Virus record (IMG/VR): IMGVR_UViG_2939121850_000001
Strand: one strand, 5' to 3'
DNA from: a virus
Lineage: Duplodnaviria > Heunggongvirae > Uroviricota > Caudoviricetes
DNA: 64,000 nt
In this document: positions 23,333-34,349 of the stretch, in pieces
Layout of the letters: each line of letters starts with the position of its first letter
Numbering within the stretch: the stretch's first letter is position 1
Program-made: the position numbers and the translations under genes
Notes under the pieces: model-generated
Told to the model about the DNA's origin: nothing
Database searches by the model: none
What the model saw: only the letters and a program-made list of their open reading frames with translations

Positions 23333-24364
23333 CTAATTGCCATCTTCCAGCAGGCGCACCATTGCCCCTGTTTCACTATCCAGGTTACGGATATAGTTCA
23401 TGACAATATTTACGTTGGTCCAGCCACCAGCTTGCATGATCTCCGGTATTGAAACTCCGGCACGGGCCATATCTCGCGCGGCTCCGACACGGGCACTGTG
23501 TCCAGACCAGGCCAGGTACCTCTGTCCAGAGTCATCCTTAGCCCCGTAAATCAATCGGTGAGTTGCTTCAAAAATCCCTTCTAGGGCGCGAGTTGATAGC
23601 TGGCTGGTGGGTGATGGCGAGGCAACACCATTTTTTCTGACCCGGCAAAACAGGTAGTTATTCGGATCATCAGCCACACCAGAGACAGAAATCCATCGCT
23701 CGACCAGTTTAGTTACCCCCAGGCTAAGTGCCTTCTCTACACCTGCGGTGCTAACCAGCGTTTTCGTTCTGCCAATATGGATTAACATTCTCCCACCGTC
23801 AGTACGTGAGATATCTTTAACCCTGATCCTGGCAATTTCGGCTATACGTAACAGGGTGTTATAAGCAATCCCCAGAAATGCCAGATTACGTATATCCTGG
23901 CAGCGATCGCTATTTTCCATGAGTGAACGAACCTGGTCGAAATCAGTGCGTTCGAACGCTAGTGCCTGTTTTGCACGTTCACCGGCATCAACGTTTTCTT
24001 TTCGGATCCGCCGCATAACCAGTGAAACAGCATTGCTATCACTTGGTCGCTGCAGCCCGGACCGACGATGAAGCATGTTTAGCTGGCCCAAATGTTGCTG
24101 GATAGTTTTTACTGCCAGACCGCGCGCCTGAAGATATAGAAGATAATCGCGAACATCTTCAGGTTCTGCGGGAAACCATTTCCGGTTATTCAACTTGCAC
24201 CATGCCGCCCACGACCGGCAAACGGACAGAAGCATTTTCCAGGTATGCTCAGAAAACGCCTGGCGATCCCTGAACATGTCCATCAGGTTCTTGCGAACCT
24301 CATCACTCGTTGCATCGACCGGCAATGCAGGCAAATTTTGGTGTACGGTCAGTAAATTGGACAT
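23333..24364 (-). CDS. cre: Cre site-specific tyrosine recombinase (343 aa)
   Basis: Matches recalled P1 Cre over its full length with a handful of substitutions; loxP lies 420 bp upstream. Confidence 0.98.
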   Translation of the reverse strand: MSNLLTVHQNLPALPVDATSDEVRKNLMDMFRDRQAFSEHTWKMLLSVCRSWAAWCKLNNRKWFPAEPEDVRDYLLYLQARGLAVKTIQQHLGQLNMLHRRSGLQRPSDSNAVSLVMRRIRKENVDAGERAKQALAFERTDFDQVRSLMENSDRCQDIRNLAFLGIAYNTLLRIAEIARIRVKDISRTDGGRMLIHIGRTKTLVSTAGVEKALSLGVTKLVERWISVSGVADDPNNYLFCRVRKNGVASPSPTSQLSTRALEGIFEATHRLIYGAKDDSGQRYLAWSGHSARVGAARDMARAGVSIPEIMQAGGWTNVNIVMNYIRNLDSETGAMVRLLEDGN

Positions 24365-25197: not shown

Positions 25198-25407
25198 ATG
25201 GCTTTCATTCAACCAACCATCGACGACGTTAGACATTGCTCTAACGCTTTATCTGTAGACCCTGCCGAAACCGACGCTGCCCGCGCCATTGCTGAACACT
25301 ACTCAAAGATATCCAATCAGGAGTACCGCATCACCCAAGACGACCTGGATGACCTCACTGACACAATCGAATATCTCATGGCAACTAACCAGTTAGACTC
25401 ACAATAA
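25198..25407 (+). CDS. coi: Coi, C1 inactivator (69 aa)
   Basis: 69-aa acidic ORF immediately upstream of c1, downstream of the operator pair. Confidence 0.75.
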   Translation: MAFIQPTIDDVRHCSNALSVDPAETDAARAIAEHYSKISNQEYRITQDDLDDLTDTIEYLMATNQLDSQ

Positions 25408-25517: not shown

Positions 25518-26369
25518 ATGATAAATTATGTCTACGGCGAACAACTGTACCAGGAGTTCGTCAGCTTCAGGGATCTCTTTCTAAAAAAAGCTGTTGCACG
25601 CGCCCAACACGTTGATACAGCCAGCGACGGTCGTCCTGTACGCCCGGTTGTCGTTCTACCGTTCAAAGAAACTGACAGCATTCAGGCTGAAATTGATAAA
25701 TGGACTTTAATGGCGCGGGAACTGGAACAGTACCCAGACCTCAATATCCCAAAGACTATTTTATATCCAGTGCCTAACATCCTTCGCGGTGTGCGCAAGG
25801 TTACAACTTATCAGACAGAAGCTGTGAACAGCGTCAACATGACCGCTGGCCGCATTATTCATCTGATTGATAAGGACATTCGCATCCAAAAAAGCGCGGG
25901 GATCAATGAGCACAGTGCGAAATACATAGAGAACCTGGAAGCAACAAAAGAGCTAATGAGGCAGTACCCGGAGGATGAAAAATTCCGTATGCGTGTACAC
26001 GGCTTTAGCGAAACAATGCTGCGCGTCCACTACATCTCCAGTAGCCCTAACTACAATGATGGTAAATCAGTTAGTTACCATGTACCGCTGTGTGGCGTGT
26101 TTATCTGCGATGAAACTCTCCGTGATGGAATCATCATCAACGGTGAATTCGAAAAAGCAAAATTTAGCCTTTATGACTCCATAGAACCGATCATCTGCGA
26201 CCGCTGGCCACAAGCAAAAATATATCGCCTGGCAGATATTGAAAATGTAAAAAAACAAATTGCCATCACTCGCGAAGAGAAAAAGGTTAAGTCAGCCGCA
26301 TCAGTTACGCGCAGCCGTAAAACCAAGAAGGGGCAGCCAGTAAACGACAACCCCGAAAGCGCGCAATAA
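25518..26369 (+). CDS. c1: C1 repressor of lysogeny (283 aa)
   Basis: 283 aa starting MINYVYGEQLYQEF; matches recalled P1 C1; the operator motif recurs across the window. Confidence 0.95.
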   Translation: MINYVYGEQLYQEFVSFRDLFLKKAVARAQHVDTASDGRPVRPVVVLPFKETDSIQAEIDKWTLMARELEQYPDLNIPKTILYPVPNILRGVRKVTTYQTEAVNSVNMTAGRIIHLIDKDIRIQKSAGINEHSAKYIENLEATKELMRQYPEDEKFRMRVHGFSETMLRVHYISSSPNYNDGKSVSYHVPLCGVFICDETLRDGIIINGEFEKAKFSLYDSIEPIICDRWPQAKIYRLADIENVKKQIAITREEKKVKSAASVTRSRKTKKGQPVNDNPESAQ

Positions 26370-26372
26370 ATT

Positions 26373-26394
26373 ATGCCCGGCATCAACCGGGCAT
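26373..26394. terminator. hairpin after c1 (convergent with antirepressor-like gene)
   Basis: atgcccgg / ccgggcat stem. Confidence 0.5.
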
Positions 26395-26401
26395 TCTTCC
26401 A

Positions 26402-27409
26402 TTATTCAGCCGCCACCGGTTTTAACAAGCCAGCATCGAGCAGTTTACGCGTCAACCACTGTTGGCCTTTCCCCGTTAATTGGGGCGTCAGCCGTATCTG
26501 GTAGCCCTCTTCATCATCCAGCACCACTTCTTTCACTGTGAAATATCCGGCGTTTATGTACTGCTGGAACGGTACATTTTTACGGCCGCCGGACGCTATC
26601 AGAATGCCGTTCTCCCGTAACCAGGCAAACAGCGCATTTTGTTTAAGTCCAACGACCTTTGCAAAATTCCCAATCAGGATCCCCTTAGCCACTGATACCC
26701 GGTCGGCAAAATCGACTTTGGGGGCTGCGGCCACCAGCTGCTGATTTAGCTGATGGGCTTTCTGTTCCAGAAGTTGCTTTTGTTCGGCCAGTTCGGCAGC
26801 CAGGCGGAGGGCTTCTGGGAGTGTCTGGGGGATTGCGATCGGTTGCTGTTCTTTTTGTCGGAAGTAGCTGTCTTCCAGTTTTTCAAAGAATGCCCACGCT
26901 TCATTTGTGTCCACGATCTTAGACATGCGTGCCGCTCCGCGCTCGGCCCAGAGAATTACCTGACTTGTATATTTGCTAACCAAGTGACTAATAGTCACTA
27001 GCCTTTTAAATTCCTTTAATTTTGAACCAGTTAAGAGATAGTAATGCTTACCTTCTTCAAAGCGATCGGGGTTGCGAGACAGATTTTTACGAATATTCGC
27101 TTCATCGGTCCCATACCCCTTAGCAAGAGTCTCAGTTGTCACTACACGCACTCCCAGCCATTCCAGAACGGGAATTTCATCAGGCTGATTTTGAGCAACC
27201 ACCAGCTCTGATTCCTGAACTGAAGGTGCATGAGTTTTTTCTGATTTAACGTTAGTTGCTTTCATTCTGTGTGCCTCCTTGCGTGTTTCGGCTGCGACGG
27301 TTGCGTAATTCAGATGACCCTGTTCGAGCAGGTATTCGCGGATATCAGACAACAGGATACGGTGAACCGCGTTCTTGTCCTTTCTCCGGTAAAGTTGTTT
27401 GGTGATCAT
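26402..27409 (-). CDS. antirepressor-like protein (N-terminal ORF6N-like, C-terminal KilAC-like), 5' end separated by IS10
   Basis: 335-aa ORF; removing IS10 and one TSD copy restores an in-frame N-terminal extension beginning at ATG 28852. Confidence 0.55.
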   Translation of the reverse strand: MITKQLYRRKDKNAVHRILLSDIREYLLEQGHLNYATVAAETRKEAHRMKATNVKSEKTHAPSVQESELVVAQNQPDEIPVLEWLGVRVVTTETLAKGYGTDEANIRKNLSRNPDRFEEGKHYYLLTGSKLKEFKRLVTISHLVSKYTSQVILWAERGAARMSKIVDTNEAWAFFEKLEDSYFRQKEQQPIAIPQTLPEALRLAAELAEQKQLLEQKAHQLNQQLVAAAPKVDFADRVSVAKGILIGNFAKVVGLKQNALFAWLRENGILIASGGRKNVPFQQYINAGYFTVKEVVLDDEEGYQIRLTPQLTGKGQQWLTRKLLDAGLLKPVAAE

Positions 27410-27426
27410 GAAGTAGTTGGCAATAA

Positions 27427-27435
27427 CGCCTGGTA
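27427..27435. repeat. IS10 target-site duplication, left copy
   Basis: cgcctggta, identical to 28765-28773. Confidence 0.9.
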
Positions 27436-28764
27436 CTGAGAGATCCCCTCATAATTTCCCCAAAACGTAACCATGTGTGAATAGATTTTGAGTAAGCAGG
27501 GTTGCAGCCACGAGTGAGTCTTCCCTTGTTATTGTGTAGCCAGAATGCCGCAAAACTTCCATGCCTAAGCGAACTGTTGAGAGTACGTTTCGATTTCTGA
27601 CTGTGTTAGCCTGGAAGTGCTTGTCCCAACCTTGTTTCTGAGCATGAACGCCCGCAAGCCAACATGTTAGTTGAAGCATCAGGGCGATTAGCAGCATGAT
27701 ATCAAAACGCTCTGAGCTGCTCGTTCGGCTATGGCGTAGGCCTAGTCCGTAGGCAGGACTTTTCAAGTCTCGGAAGGTTTCTTCAATCTGCATTCGCTTC
27801 GAATAGATATTAACAAGTTGTTTGGGTGTTCGAATTTCAACAGGTAAGTTAGTTGCTAGAATCCATGGCTCCTTTGCCGACGCTGAGTAGATTTTAGGTG
27901 ACGGGTGGTGACAATGAGTCCGTGTCGAGCGCTGATTTTTTCGGCCTTTAGAGCGAGATTTATACAATAGAATTTGGCATGAGATTGGATTGCTTTTAGT
28001 CAGCCTCTTATAGCCTAAAGTCTTTGAGTGACTAGATGACATATCATGTAAGTTGCTGATAGGTTTCCAGTTTTCCGCTCCTAGGTCTGCATATTGTACT
28101 TTTCCTCTTACTCGACTTAACCAGTACCAACCCAGCTTCTCAACGGATTTATACCATGGCACTTTAAAGCCAGCATCACTGACAATGAGCGGTGTGGTGT
28201 TACTCGGTAGAATGCTCGCAAGGTCGGCTAGAAATTGGTCATGAGCTTTCTTTGAACATTGCTCTGAAAGCGGGAACGCTTTCTCATAAAGAGTAACAGA
28301 ACGACCGTGTAGTGCGACTGAAGCTCGCAATACCATAAGCCGTTTTTGCTCACGGATATCAGACCAGTCAACAAGTACAATGGGCATCGTATTGCCCGAA
28401 CAGATAAAGCTAGCATGCCAACGGTATACAGCGAGTCGCTCTTTGTGGAGGTGACGATTACCTAACAATCGGTCGATTCGTTTGATGTTATGTTTTGTTC
28501 TCGCTTTGGTTGGCAGGTTACGGCCAAGTTCGGTAAGAGTGAGAGTTTTACAGTCAAGTAAGGCGTGGCAAGCCAACGTTAAGCTGTTGAGTCGTTTTAA
28601 GTGTAATTCGGGGCAGAATTGGTAAAGAGAGTCGTGTAAAATATCGAGTTCGCACATTTTGTTGTCTGATTATTGATTTTTGGCGAAACCATTTGATCAT
28701 ATGACAAGATGTGTATCTACCTTAACTTAATGATTTTGATAAAAATCATTAGGGGATTCATCAG
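27436..28764 (-). mobile_element. IS10 (1329 bp)
   Basis: Ends CTGAGAGATCCCCTCATAATTTCCCC (inside end) and CTGATGAATCCCCTAATGATTTTTATCAAAATCATTAAG (outside end, reverse complement); 9-bp TSD. Confidence 0.95.
27449..28657 (-). CDS. IS10 transposase (402 aa)
   Basis: Starts MCELDILHDSLYQFCPELHLKRLNSL; IS4-family DDE transposase. Confidence 0.95.
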   Translation of the reverse strand: MCELDILHDSLYQFCPELHLKRLNSLTLACHALLDCKTLTLTELGRNLPTKARTKHNIKRIDRLLGNRHLHKERLAVYRWHASFICSGNTMPIVLVDWSDIREQKRLMVLRASVALHGRSVTLYEKAFPLSEQCSKKAHDQFLADLASILPSNTTPLIVSDAGFKVPWYKSVEKLGWYWLSRVRGKVQYADLGAENWKPISNLHDMSSSHSKTLGYKRLTKSNPISCQILLYKSRSKGRKNQRSTRTHCHHPSPKIYSASAKEPWILATNLPVEIRTPKQLVNIYSKRMQIEETFRDLKSPAYGLGLRHSRTSSSERFDIMLLIALMLQLTCWLAGVHAQKQGWDKHFQANTVRNRNVLSTVRLGMEVLRHSGYTITREDSLVAATLLTQNLFTHGYVLGKL

Positions 28765-28773
28765 CGCCTGGTA
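28765..28773. repeat. IS10 target-site duplication, right copy
   Basis: cgcctggta. Confidence 0.9.
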
Positions 28774-28852
28774 TATCCCTGGTACTGATACAGGCAGTGT
28801 GCTGTTCAATTGCCTCGATCATCTCTTCACGGGTGACTAATGACGTTCTCAT
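28774..28852 (-). pseudogene. severed 5' end (first ~26 codons) of the antirepressor-like gene
   Basis: ATG at 28852 overlaps stop of upstream small gene (ATGA); frame continues into 27409 ORF after IS10 removal. Confidence 0.6.
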
Positions 28853-29070
28853 AGTCCCTCCTGAGCAGAAGCGTTAACAGGGAGGCACCAGTAACTGAGA
28901 GAATTGCGTGAATCAGTGGAAAAACGGGCAGAGAAAATACATGGGGCGTCAGGAAGCTGAGAGCGGGCCTCATCTTCTGTTGGTGCAATAACGAAGTGAT
29001 AGTGACGTTTTTGGCAGGAGTAAAAGCGCCAGATAAATTCAGGATGAGTTGGGGTAGGGATAGTAGCCAT
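28849..29070 (-). CDS. small Icd-like protein (73 aa), first gene of the antirepressor module
   Basis: RBS ggagg before ATG 29070; coupled to downstream gene; the longer 187-aa ORF in this frame has a low-complexity N-terminus and no RBS. Confidence 0.45.
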   Translation of the reverse strand: MATIPTPTHPEFIWRFYSCQKRHYHFVIAPTEDEARSQLPDAPCIFSARFSTDSRNSLSYWCLPVNASAQEGL

Positions 29071-29234
29071 ATTGGCAGCCTCCTTAGACGTTGGTATGTA
29101 ACCACCGCAGAAGAGACCAATCTTGCTGGCGGTGGACTGTACGGAGTTGGCCTTACTGGCGTCCAAGGTAACCAGCCTACCCGAAGGTAGCCCCATACAG
29201 CCCACCATTGTAGAGGTGTGCGTGTACGCCGATA

Positions 29235-29259
29235 CAAAAAAAGACGCGAGCGGCGTCTG
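29235..29259 (-). terminator. hairpin + T7 run inside the leader of the antirepressor module (possible small-RNA terminator or attenuator)
   Basis: gacgc..gcgtc stem followed by TTTTTTT on minus strand, about 130-150 nt downstream of the C1 operator. Confidence 0.4.
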
Positions 29260-29388
29260 TATCGCCTTAGACTTAAGCGGGAGGCCAATCCCGGCACCCG
29301 TTTTAATGAGGTGCCTGATAAGCATAAACCGAAAATGCCACAAGGCGCAAGAGGTCAGGTTCAATGTAACATCGGTAGCTAAAAAACA

Positions 29389-29405
29389 CAATTTATTAGA
29401 GCAAA
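29389..29405 (-). promoter_or_regulatory. C1 operator (15/17) just downstream of pacB stop, facing the icd/ant-like module
   Basis: caatttattagagcaaa. Confidence 0.6.
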
Positions 29406-29408
29406 TAT

Positions 29409-30893
29409 TCATTCATTAAGCCATGCCAGAGCTTCATCAACCTGCGCTTCGTCTTCGACGCTAAGCCCTTCATCCTGGGGAACATAATCCGCCAGCATAG
29501 CGAAACAATATGTATCCCAATGGTCTGGTGAGTGCAGGTTGAGTTTTTTCTTCATATCCTCCTTACTCATCACCTTCCATTGACCTGCGGAGTTAATCCC
29601 TACAGGGATTTTCGACGCTTCCTCAATAGTTTCATTACCCTTATCCAGTCTCATACGACCAGATTTTACGGCCTCTGCGGCTTGAACATTGGCATAAGCA
29701 CGTTTATCAAAGTACAGGCTCTTATCTTCACGGCTATGCATCTTTTTACCCCAGCGTATACGCTGTACGGTAATACCATAATACTCGTACATCAGATCCG
29801 CCGTTGCTTTACCCAGGCCATCGCCGTCTATCGCTATGGTGATATTGGGGAATCGCTCAGGATTACATTCTGCGAAAATTTTGGCGGCAAGCTGCGTTTC
29901 TGTAACGTCTGTGTATTCCAGCATTCGATAGTTGATTACACGGCGTTTATTTCGCTGGCCGGACACCATCATGATATTGATAACGGACTTATCCCGTCCC
30001 GTACCACCAGCAACGTCCACACATGCAAGCCAGCCCCATCCTTTTGCAATCTTGACTTTCCGCCGCGTTGCACGTTCAACCTCATCACGTCCAAGAAGGA
30101 AGCCATCCTGTGATTTAGGGAATAGGCCGCGTACCTTAATCATGTACATAGGGTTATCACGCCCGCCGTACTCCGCCAGCTTCATTTTGATAAATGCTGG
30201 CGTTACCAACGGTGATTCCTCACTGTTAAGCGTGATCGCCGTATAAACGCCATCAGGGTTACCAGGACGCTTGGCCAGTTTATGGTGTGTATCGTAGAAA
30301 TAGCCGCTTGGGCGTGTAGGCTGTGACAGCAATAAGATGCGGTTATCCTGTCCGGTAAGAGCACCGGTGATGATACCGAAAGCTCTATCACTGACACCGG
30401 AGGCTTCATCGATAATATACAGAAGATGATCTGCGTGTTCACCGGCGAGAGCTTCTTCACTTCCCAGACGAAAGCCCTTCGGTACTACAGTCCATACACC
30501 TTTACCAGTAACCTCATAGAAAGCGGTTTCTGTCAGAACAAAATAATCAGCAAGCCATGGGAAACGGCTGGTGGCAGTAGCCCAGTTTATCTTGATGTAC
30601 TTGAATATACCGGTCATTACCTGCTGAATTTTGTTCGCAACGATAATGGCACGGGCACCTGGATACATGATTATGAACAACATGATCATGATAGAAGTCA
30701 TGTCTGATTTCCCGGTACCGTGACCAGACGAAACAGATGTCTTGCTACCCTGTTCCTGCACAGACTCAATAATCAGATCCTGCTGCCAGGTAGGTGTTTT
30801 GCCGAACAAAACATCAGCGGCAGCAATCCAGTCATAACGATATAGCGCCACCAGCTCGCGCCAACGTGGATCCGTTACGCAACTTCTGGCCAT
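29409..30893 (-). CDS. pacB: terminase large subunit PacB (494 aa)
   Basis: Walker [11 protein letters not shown]; coupled to pacA; size matches P1 PacB. Confidence 0.85.
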
Positions 30894-32086
30894 TAATCAT
30901 CATCCCCGTATAGCTTGCGGGTAACTTCTTCGTCTTCCTCCTCGTCTTCGTCCAGGTCTTGTTCCAGCCATGGGTCGTTTGATACACCTTCAGTATCAAC
31001 ATCTCCATAACCGCCTGTATCAACAATATCGGCGATTTCTTCCCTACGCTGCTCAATCCACAATGCGGCATCGGCGCGGCGGTTGGCGGCCCGTTCTCGC
31101 GCAACTTTGTCCAGATCTTCAAGAGAAGGGCCACCGACGGCTGTTTGCCTTTCCTCATCATCGGTATTGGTCTTAGGAGCACGCAGATCGGCTTTGATTT
31201 GCTCCAGCATCAGGGGCGGAACTTTCCCGCCATGCGCCTCGATGAATTCAGCTGCTTCCAGCACTGACCAGTTATTTTCACGCTTTCGTTCGTATGCCAG
31301 TTTAACAATGCCAGCTTGCCCCATAGACAAAGCGTGCTTTTCCGCCTCCCGGCTTTCTTTTCGATAGTTATTCCGGATGCTGTAAATGGTGTTGATCAGG
31401 CTGCTTATCTGCGCGGAACAGCTGTTTAGCATGCTCGCGATACGGTATTCAGGCGGAGTTCCTTCATCATCGTCTTTTTGCTGATCGCGCATTTCCTGAA
31501 CCAAGCGAATACACGTATCCCTGGCGTTCTCCAGCATAAGGAGATGAGAGAGAGACTTTTCCAGAAGAGTGGTTTCCAGAACATCAGCCCCGGACCGACG
31601 CAACATAGCGCGCGCGGCCTTCCGCGCTTCAACGTTATCTATCAGGTAATCGCCAGCTTCGAATTCAAAGCGTTCACCATCATCATCCAGGGTGTCGCGT
31701 TCCAGGCGATCACGTAAGGTCCGGTGGGCGCGGGTGATCACGTCATGATCATCAGAACGATCATTTATGCGCTTATTCTGGCGCTTCGCGTTCTCGACTG
31801 CGGCACTGACAACAGCATTAACTCTTTGTTTTTCAGCCATTTCAGCCACAACGTGATCACCTGCACGTTGATCATTAGCGTGATCAATGATCATGCTTTT
31901 TAGTGGTTTTCTGACAGGCTTATTTGGCTTACGGCTGTCCGCTGTTCCGGTGTCTTCTTTGAATGCACGGAGATAACGACGTGCGGTGTTTGGGTTGAGA
32001 TTAAACTCGGCGGCATATTGTGCGATGGTGTAACCACCATCTCGCGCCAGGCGAGCAAAATTCTTCTTGTGATCGTCCCAGGTCAC
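30893..32086 (-). CDS. pacA: terminase small subunit PacA (397 aa); contains pac site
   Basis: Acidic C-terminus; TGATCA(G/C) hexamer clusters inside the gene. Confidence 0.85.
31735..31894. other. pac packaging site
   Basis: Two clusters of TGATCA(C/T/A) hexamers (31735-31764 and 31853-31894), about 160 bp, Dam-methylatable. Confidence 0.8.
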
Positions 32087-33985: not shown

Positions 33986-34349
33986 ACAATCTACGTAACG
34001 TGTCGGCGACAGAAGATACAGATATCTCGCCAGTCGCAGCGCCTACAGTAAGGTCTGCCAGTTCAGGTGAATCAAATACCTGCACCCCGTTACGGCGTAG
34101 AAATAACAGCGCACTGTTTAGCGCGGTACGCTTATTGGCATCATTGAATATATGCCCTCTCGCTGTAGCCACCAGGTAGGTGGCGGAGACTTCGAAAAGG
34201 TCGGTGATCTCTTCGTAGGCAACTCTGGCCTGAACTCTCCCGATAATGGCCTCTGCCCTACCCGGATCTGACATTCCCGGCAGGCCGCCGTAGCGGTTTA
34301 TATTCGCATCATGAAGCGCAATAAGTTCTTCCGGTGATATATGCCTCAT
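33969..34349 (-). CDS. doc: Doc toxin (126 aa, Fic-fold kinase)
   Basis: 126 aa starting [17 protein letters not shown]; overlaps phd stop. Confidence 0.95.

Follow-up and report, generated by a model that had tools for sequence, protein, structure and literature searches.

In phage P1 just 24 bp separate the pacB stop codon from that of c1, and P7 likewise has no insert at this site. The DNA analysed here, a 64,000-nucleotide (nt) stretch of the IMG/VR record IMGVR_UViG_2939121850_000001 (this whole stretch is called the window below), is part of a P1-like phage-plasmid in which about 3 kb (positions 26372-29408) lies between the same two genes. What does this insert encode, and how is it related to immI, the P1 region that holds c4, icd and ant? 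A first-pass annotation of the window had pointed out that pacB and c1 are adjacent in P1, which the 24-bp spacer confirms, and had left room for the arrangement being the standard P1 interval, which it is not. It had read the insert as an operator, a small-RNA-like leader, an icd-like gene and an antirepressor-like gene. The evidence presented here supports that reading. We consider it highly probable that the insert is a paralogue of immI, a second anti-immunity operon of this type, which stands in place of the P1 pacB-c1 spacer. What had been missed is that the insert is common, that its leader is of the IsrK type and that an insertion sequence, IS10, has probably inactivated the antirepressor gene. 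The anatomy of the module, the homologies of its parts, the complementarity and co-variation of its RNA sites and its disruption were all read directly from the DNA.

An immI-like gene order between pacB and c1

On the minus strand the interval holds, in this order, a C1 operator, an IsrK-family leader with a terminator, a C4 RNA gene, icd, and an ant gene split by IS10. The operator, the leader terminator, the 73-amino-acid gene, the coupled ant-like gene and IS10 had all been recognised in the first pass, at nearly identical coordinates. The features are as follows.

29389-29405, minus strand: predicted C1 operator TTTGCTCTAATAAATTG, 15 of 17 consensus bases, homologue of P1 Op51
29363-29391, minus strand: candidate C1-controlled promoter, from alignment to the annotated P1 promoter P51a/P2c4
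29321-29350, minus strand: candidate operator-free promoter, from alignment to the annotated P1 promoter P51b/P1c4
29237-29314, minus strand: IsrK-family leader RNA, Rfam RF01394, 60.8 bits against a gathering score of 50
29236-29258, minus strand: intrinsic terminator, a hairpin with a seven-T run, from a terminator scan
29125-29212 (core 29131-29206), minus strand: C4 antisense RNA gene, Rfam RF01695, 75.9 bits against a gathering score of 45
29079-29120, minus strand: C4 target region of the icd-ant mRNA, with a2 at 29114-29120 and b2 at 29082-29090
28849-29070, minus strand: icd homologue, 73 amino acids, NCBIfam NF033153 'Icd-like' (49.8 bits), phrog_1426
28765-28852, minus strand: start of the ant1-like gene, 29 full codons and one base of codon 30
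27436-28764, minus strand: IS10, 1329 bp, complete, with terminal inverted repeats, IS4 family
26402-27435, minus strand: rest of ant, with the nested ant2-like start, ORF6N and KilAC
26373-26394, no strand assigned: GC-rich hairpin at the point where ant and c1 converge, from the terminator scan, 9 pairs of which 6 are G-C

Two RNAs in the leader

The leader had been taken to be a structured segment of about 150 nt with a UUCG-type hairpin and a hairpin-plus-T7 terminator. It in fact measures about 245 nt and holds two RNAs recognised by Rfam, isrK and C4. The terminator was located by the scan where it had been expected, and the IsrK-family leader, which bears the C4 target sites a1 (29282-29288) and b1 (29265-29272), ends in it. 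The UUCG hairpin is also real, and it belongs to the C4 RNA, of which it forms hairpin 1. The 76-nt core of C4 folds into the shape of the family (-40.1 kcal/mol, z = -4.26), and 13 of its 27 pairs show compensatory changes among seven homologues. Its two recognition elements are a loop, b' (29160-29168), and a single-stranded segment, a' (29147-29153).

By the same Rfam searches, the P1 leader matches the c4-a1b1 family (51 bits) and isrK weakly (35 bits), and isrK exceeds its threshold in the leaders of the window, of phages RCS47 and JL22, and of D6. The combination of isrK and C4 is found as well upstream of antirepressor genes and of Rha-type or other regulatory genes in many Shiga toxin (Stx)-converting phages.

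An open reading frame (ORF) that RefSeq labels 'ash family protein' was considered as a further gene of the module and dropped; in ETEC1706 this 39-amino-acid ORF lies on the C4 RNA gene, covering the C4 core (1724-1802 of the examined stretch). In P1-like plasmids, the coding sequences and pseudogenes with this label fall at the positions of the isrK and C4 RNA genes (for instance pE2-2, 86616-86933). The label is probably a protein call laid over an RNA gene.

A recognition code distinct from those of P1 and P7

If C4 works here as it does in P1, its two recognition elements should pair with sites in the leader and in the icd-ant mRNA. We find that a' (AGGCCAA) is complementary to a1 (TTGGCCT) and to a2 (TTGGTCT), and that b' (CCTTGGAC(G)) is complementary to b1 (GTCTAAGG) and to b2 (CGTCTAAGG). 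The a'/a2 and b'/b2 matches form antiparallel duplexes of 7 bp and 9 bp, respectively, at the positions of P1 a2 and b2. Complementarity between the leader and the ribosome-binding site of icd, a check that the first-pass annotation had proposed, is thus present: b2 overlaps the icd Shine-Dalgarno sequence AAGGAGG (29079-29085).

The annotated targets of P1 are TTGACAG for a and GTTAGTGA/GTTAGTGC for b, which match the single-stranded a' and the b' loop of P1 C4 in the same complementary way; those of P7 are TTAGCAG and GATTGTGA. P1 and P7, which are heteroimmune (PMC6906374), differ by two bases in the a site and two in the b site. The code of the window differs from each of them at more positions than they differ from one another, and cross-recognition is therefore unlikely. 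The earlier suggestion that the module may have a small-RNA specificity of its own is borne out by this pattern of pairing. At least four codes were found at the c1-pacB site.

Window-type code: TTGGCCT with GTCTAAGG
RCS47 code: TTGAGAC with GTCAAAGG
JL22, pXH989 and NCTC9040 code: TTGAGAC with GCAAAAGG
ETEC1706 code: TTGGAAC with GTCAAAGG

In every c1-pacB code compared, a' changes together with a1 and a2, and b' together with b1 and b2; the a and b complementarity also holds in D6, in two chromosomal islands, in P1 and in P7. This three-way co-variation is the strongest evidence that the predicted RNA interactions are functional.

Operator and candidate promoters

The first-pass annotation had placed a C1 operator directly after the pacB stop codon, and one is indeed predicted there: TTTGCTCTAATAAATTG begins 3 nt past the stop and departs from the consensus at two positions. 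It aligns column for column with P1 Op51, in the same orientation and in the same register with respect to the -35 hexamer, and its sequence is identical in RCS47 and JL22. The last 3 nt of the operator overlap the -35 hexamer of the upstream candidate promoter, which consists of TTGTGT (29386-29391), a 17-nt spacer and the -10 hexamer TACATT (29363-29368). The second candidate, with no operator, has TTGCGC (29345-29350), an 18-nt spacer and TATGCT (29321-29326), and the Rfam match to isrK begins 7 nt past this -10 hexamer. Both promoters were proposed solely by alignment to annotated P1 promoters.

The icd and ant genes

The icd-like gene with a ribosome-binding site reported earlier encodes a protein of 73 amino acids that is 80% identical to P1 Icd. 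The search against Pfam returned no model matching it; the NCBIfam Icd-like model does match. Its stop codon overlaps the ant start (28852) as ATGA. When 28765-28852 is joined to 26402-27435, leaving out IS10 and one copy of its target duplication, an open frame of 370 codons is restored. The protein had been estimated at about 360 amino acids, coupled by ATGA to icd, with ORF6N-like and KilAC-like regions, and both domains are matched by Pfam in the restored sequence: ORF6N at amino acids 117-200 (PF10543, 8.6e-17) and KilAC at 258-359 (PF03374, 3.3e-31). The 335-amino-acid protein that had been singled out as an antirepressor is homologous to Ant, as proposed, and corresponds to just the part of the gene that follows IS10.

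Restored Ant is 57% identical to P1 Ant1 over its full length. Both ends are conserved, about 105 amino acids at the N-terminus and about 140 at the C-terminus, the latter at more than 90% identity; the central third is the ORF6N domain, which is unrelated to the centre of P1 Ant1 and is the most variable part of the protein among the relatives. P1 annotation records that Ant2 is made from an in-frame start at codon 84 of ant1. The restored gene has such a nested start at codon 84, with a perfect AAGGAGG and an ATG within 27257-27280, and both this start and the ATGA coupling are conserved in the seven relatives compared.

By analogy with P1, the second Ant would bind and inactivate C1. Could it act instead on the repressors of other prophages, or have another DNA-binding role? 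The unrelated and variable central third would fit such a target, as would the ORF6N centre and the label 'DNA binding protein Roi' that depositors gave the gene in some records. The N-terminal 105 amino acids and the KilAC-containing C-terminal part are nonetheless P1-Ant-like, the best PHROG match is phrog_63 'anti-repressor Ant' (4e-132) over the full length, and the C1 operator of the operon ties the module to the C1 circuit. We therefore regard a target other than P1 C1 as improbable.

The ant operon and c1 converge, and their stop codons are separated by just the 22-nt hairpin at 26373-26394, which is probably a two-way terminator of both genes. Read-through out of an induced ant operon would run antisense to c1.

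IS10 insertion in ant

Why, then, is ant not contiguous in the window? IS10 has entered at codon 30 of ant1. It is flanked by a 9-bp target duplication, CGCCTGGTA (27427-27435 and 28765-28773), and its transposase is intact (402 amino acids, 27449-28657). The insertion separates ant from its coupled start and leaves the promoters 1.3 kb further upstream, and for these reasons the output of the second Ant is probably lost or strongly reduced in this element. The genes for C4, the IsrK-like RNA and Icd are intact despite IS10. C4-mediated immunity of the window code thus probably persists, to judge from these intact genes, in an element deprived of its own second Ant. The IS10 allele predicts a lysogen that would keep RNA-based immunity and lack one route of induction.

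This state raises the question of whether the module is mainly defensive, C4 acting in trans to silence ant operons of the same code in incoming or co-resident elements (superinfection immunity) and the loss of ant being neutral or even beneficial. The survival of C4, leader and icd beside a broken ant is what such a role would leave behind; the circulation of several RNA codes at the c1-pacB site is expected of an immunity-specificity determinant, and the window code recurs in an unrelated chromosomal island. We nevertheless think a mainly defensive role somewhat unlikely. Six of seven relatives keep the ant ORF together with its nested start, which argues that Ant is under selection generally. 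Moreover, among the phages, plasmids and complete E. coli genomes searched, no other record has IS10 at this site, and none covers 80% or more of the interval; the copy in the window is the only one found with IS10, as expected of a single recent event and not of a selected state.

Within IS10, RNA-OUT was identified on the plus strand at 28650-28719 (Rfam, 97.3 bits). It is oriented outwards, facing icd, C4 and the leader from their antisense strand. Outward transcription from the IS10 promoter pOUT could interfere with the remaining icd, C4 and leader module.

Distribution of the module

Is the module peculiar to this element? An insert without IS10 occupies the same site in phages RCS47, JL22 and vB_EcoM-673R5 and in dozens of IncY-type plasmids; P1, P7, SJ46 and others match just the flanks of the queried interval. 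We surveyed 5,426 complete E. coli genomes with the operator-to-ant segment (644 nt, at least 80% covered) as the query. The c1 gene is present in 697 of these genomes, and at least 258 of the 697 carry the module. The nearest copy, in plasmid pE2-2, is 100% identical over the 644 nt. The pacB-c1 insert is therefore an already sequenced and common variant of P1-like elements.

In phage vB_EcoM-673R5 (ON470615.2) the second ant is frameshifted (257 amino acids) and c1 is annotated in three pieces; these breaks are either real decay or sequencing errors. The record CP088502.1 was tried as the best plasmid match and rejected, being a rearranged and deleted version with a truncated ant next to pacB. 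In this plasmid (IncFIB/IncHI1B, 120320-120721) the 3' part of the second ant stands alone, fused beside pacB, with IS10-family and IS5-family elements nearby.

Could the region instead have no function and merely have been left behind by recombination with a lambdoid or satellite element? Its leader cassette is common to Stx phages, D6 and chromosomal islands, and its ant is disrupted by an insertion sequence in the window and frameshifted in the 673R5 record. Against this, the three-way co-variation of the RNA sites, the conserved ORFs and their coupling, and the occurrence of the module in no fewer than 258 complete E. coli genomes argue for selection, and we hold a remnant to be extremely unlikely.

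The first-pass annotation had left undecided whether the module is a second copy of immI or a relocated one. In the latter case the element would have a single c4-icd-ant operon, immI having moved next to immC. A single C4 match was found in the window, which covers about 64 kb of an element of about 93 kb and does not reach the sim to kilA/repL region. All four relatives that were fully examined (RCS47, JL22, 673R5 and pE2-2) hold both loci, though: RCS47, JL22 and 673R5 also carry the canonical sim-c4-icd-ant1/2-kilA region, and a scan of the whole of pE2-2 found two C4 genes, a canonical one with a c4-a1b1 leader and a P7-type code, and the c1-adjacent one with an isrK leader. In pE2-2, a module identical to that of the window over the 644 nt compared coexists with a canonical locus. 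The leader of the module is, moreover, of the isrK type and not of the canonical c4-a1b1 type, which fits a separate acquisition. Relocation is very unlikely on this evidence, and the relatives support the other half of the earlier proposal, that the module is a second copy. Since it lies between c1 and pacB and not between sim and kilA/repL, where immI proper is found, it would be a paralogue of immI and not immI itself.

Comparison with known systems

The layout had been described as a mirror of P1 immI, and the module can indeed be aligned at the DNA level with P1 immI from Op51 through c4 and icd into ant. It shares with the immI regions of P1 and P7 the order of its parts, a C4 RNA of the same Rfam family, the logic of a1/b1, a'/b' and a2/b2 with b2 over the icd ribosome-binding site, the Icd protein (80% identity), the ATGA coupling, the codon-84 start of Ant2 and a KilAC C-terminus that is more than 90% identical. 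It differs in lying beside immC, between pacB and c1, whereas P1 immI lies between sim and kilA/repL; in an isrK-type leader (60.8 bits) with a strong terminator, where P1 has a c4-a1b1 leader; and in another RNA code, an ORF6N centre of Ant, a weaker operator-free promoter and the IS10 in ant. At the level of sequence, the module shows every feature of a P1-type C4/icd/ant operon except its genomic position.

The nature of the leader also invites comparison with the Salmonella prophage Gifsy-1 (NC_010392.1, minus strand, 34131-34329), where a C4 match of 69 bits (34131-34214) comes directly after isrK (34240-34316) and the antirepressor-like gene STM2616 is next in order; the Rfam c4-a1b1 family overlaps isrK there. 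[quoted passage not shown] Activation in trans is also the role proposed below for the leader with a1 and b1. For the IsrK family, partial read-through into the small ORF and antirepressor, trans-activation by the short RNA and Hfq binding are known from Gifsy-1 alone, and the layout of the module is compatible with them. Judging by position, orf45/STnc1160 would lie on the C4 homologue; no statement linking the two was found in the literature searched, and the model published in PMC4825925 makes no mention of C4. The isrK-orf45-anrP region and the module thus have in common an IsrK leader with a terminator, then a C4-family RNA, then a small ORF coupled to an antirepressor. Unlike the module, Gifsy-1, a lambdoid prophage, lacks both a C1 operator and icd; there is overlap between its small ORF and the C4 homologue, and its antirepressor STM2616 is much shorter (188 amino acids).

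The inserts of RCS47, pTZ20_1P, JL22 and 673R5 are the same module at the same site, with the same operator, icd and ant (83-99% DNA identity), although RCS47 and JL22 carry other C4 codes. The records, and the one published sentence that mentions the insert, describe it as just an antirepressor gene plus two short hypothetical ORFs (PMC6906374). Database labels on the genes of the module include 'Icd-like', 'KilAC antirepressor', 'ant' and 'Roi', and the RNAs and their codes are unannotated at the c1-pacB locus in the RCS47, JL22 and 673R5 records. A second c4-icd region has been remarked on in D6-like plasmids (PMC6799933). The D6 region (orf83/orf82) likewise combines isrK, C4, icd and an antirepressor, and its code is that of JL22; it differs in its site, near ref and pmgF, in an antirepressor annotated as Rha/Roi/KilA-type and in its promoter region. 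The occurrence of two modules of this kind in a single plasmid prophage has a precedent in D6. For the c1-pacB locus, the literature searched yielded no account of the RNAs, their codes, the IsrK-type leader or a functional test; the comparative paper on D6 (Gilcrease and Casjens 2018) might hold one.

Proposed mechanism

How would such an operon work? Here we reason from P1 immI, from established knowledge of P1 and from Gifsy-1 IsrK to how the operon would be transcribed and its RNA processed, which way regulation would run and what Ant would act on. The operon would be transcribed from two promoters, of which just the upstream one is overlapped by the C1 operator. Most transcripts would end at the leader terminator, giving a short RNA (about 80 nt) with the decoy sites a1 and b1 on it, while those that read through the terminator would be processed to C4. 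The a' and b' elements of C4 would then bind a2 and b2, occlude the ribosome-binding site of icd and block its translation; because ant is translationally coupled to icd, Ant would not be made either. Since the leader RNA carries a1 and b1, it could titrate C4 and so act as an activator. Were C1 to fall, the operator-controlled promoter would add transcripts until C4 was outnumbered, Icd and Ant1/Ant2 would be made, and Ant would then inactivate the repressor. The difference between the code of the module and those of P1 and P7 suggests that the module would be insulated from the canonical immI of its relatives. The module occurs widely, its mechanism can be predicted from P1 and IsrK, and the copy in the window is probably inactivated.

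Several observations weigh against a second, working immI-type operon. The upstream candidate promoter matches the consensus weakly (7 of 12 positions), the operator-free candidate is much weaker than P1 P51b, and a simple sigma-70 consensus scan reported no promoter in the leader, both candidates falling below its threshold. One of the pairs in the a2 duplex is G-U, as is one in the b2 duplex. The middle third of Ant has no relation to the corresponding part of P1 Ant1, so it is not certain that the protein would bind C1. The canonical immI position of this element falls outside the window, and the relatives stand in for it in the comparison above. Finally, the nested ant2-like ORF is intact downstream of IS10, and read-through from IS10 may give it low-level expression.

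The surrounding region

The module is framed by genes of the P1 type, called as follows.

23333-24364, minus strand: cre
25198-25407, plus strand: coi
25518-26369, plus strand: c1
29409-30893, minus strand: pacB
30893-32086, minus strand: pacA

The window contains 15 C1 operator-like sites (at most three mismatches to the consensus), where 0.29 are expected from shuffled sequences. They span 5397-61489, and a perfect match at 57174-57190 overlaps a site on the opposite strand at 57163-57179. The three tRNA genes of the window have the same order and spacing as those of plasmid pE2-2.

Chromosomal islands and wider significance

The leader of the window is not confined to phage-plasmids. In E. 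coli EC12 (NZ_CP070229.1, about 3671000-3685000) an island that adjoins nfeF carries a leader 98% identical to it, with an identical C4 core and identical a and b codes. The order of genes in this island is integrase, helix-turn-helix protein, isrK and C4, an icd-like gene, DUF4222, primase, SSB, ProQ/FinO and PerC. A second chromosomal island has the a code of the window with a different b code.

It is conceivable, though we would call it a long shot, that natural P1-like phage-plasmids operate a pair of RNA-coded anti-immunity circuits insulated from one another, and that the second belongs to a shared pool of IsrK/C4 codes that also controls the antirepressors of Stx and other lambdoid phages and the replication operons of integrase-primase islands. 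If this were true, the leader RNA of a phage-plasmid could titrate the C4 of an EC12-type island and switch the island on, and the C4 of such an island could silence the second Ant of the plasmid. This would amount to sensing or interference at the level of RNA, linking a satellite-like island to a P1-type element.

The usual teaching divides P1 immunity among three loci, immC, immI and immT. A second C4/Icd/Ant circuit beside c1 would be a fourth immunity locus, present in at least a third of the P1-type elements of complete E. coli genomes. The module links two literatures, on P1 C4 and on Salmonella IsrK, that have named one cassette differently, and its interchangeable RNA codes would constitute a natural set of orthogonal antisense-RNA switches. 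The second module may thus bear on which P1-like phage-plasmids, many of them with resistance genes, coexist with, exclude or induce one another.

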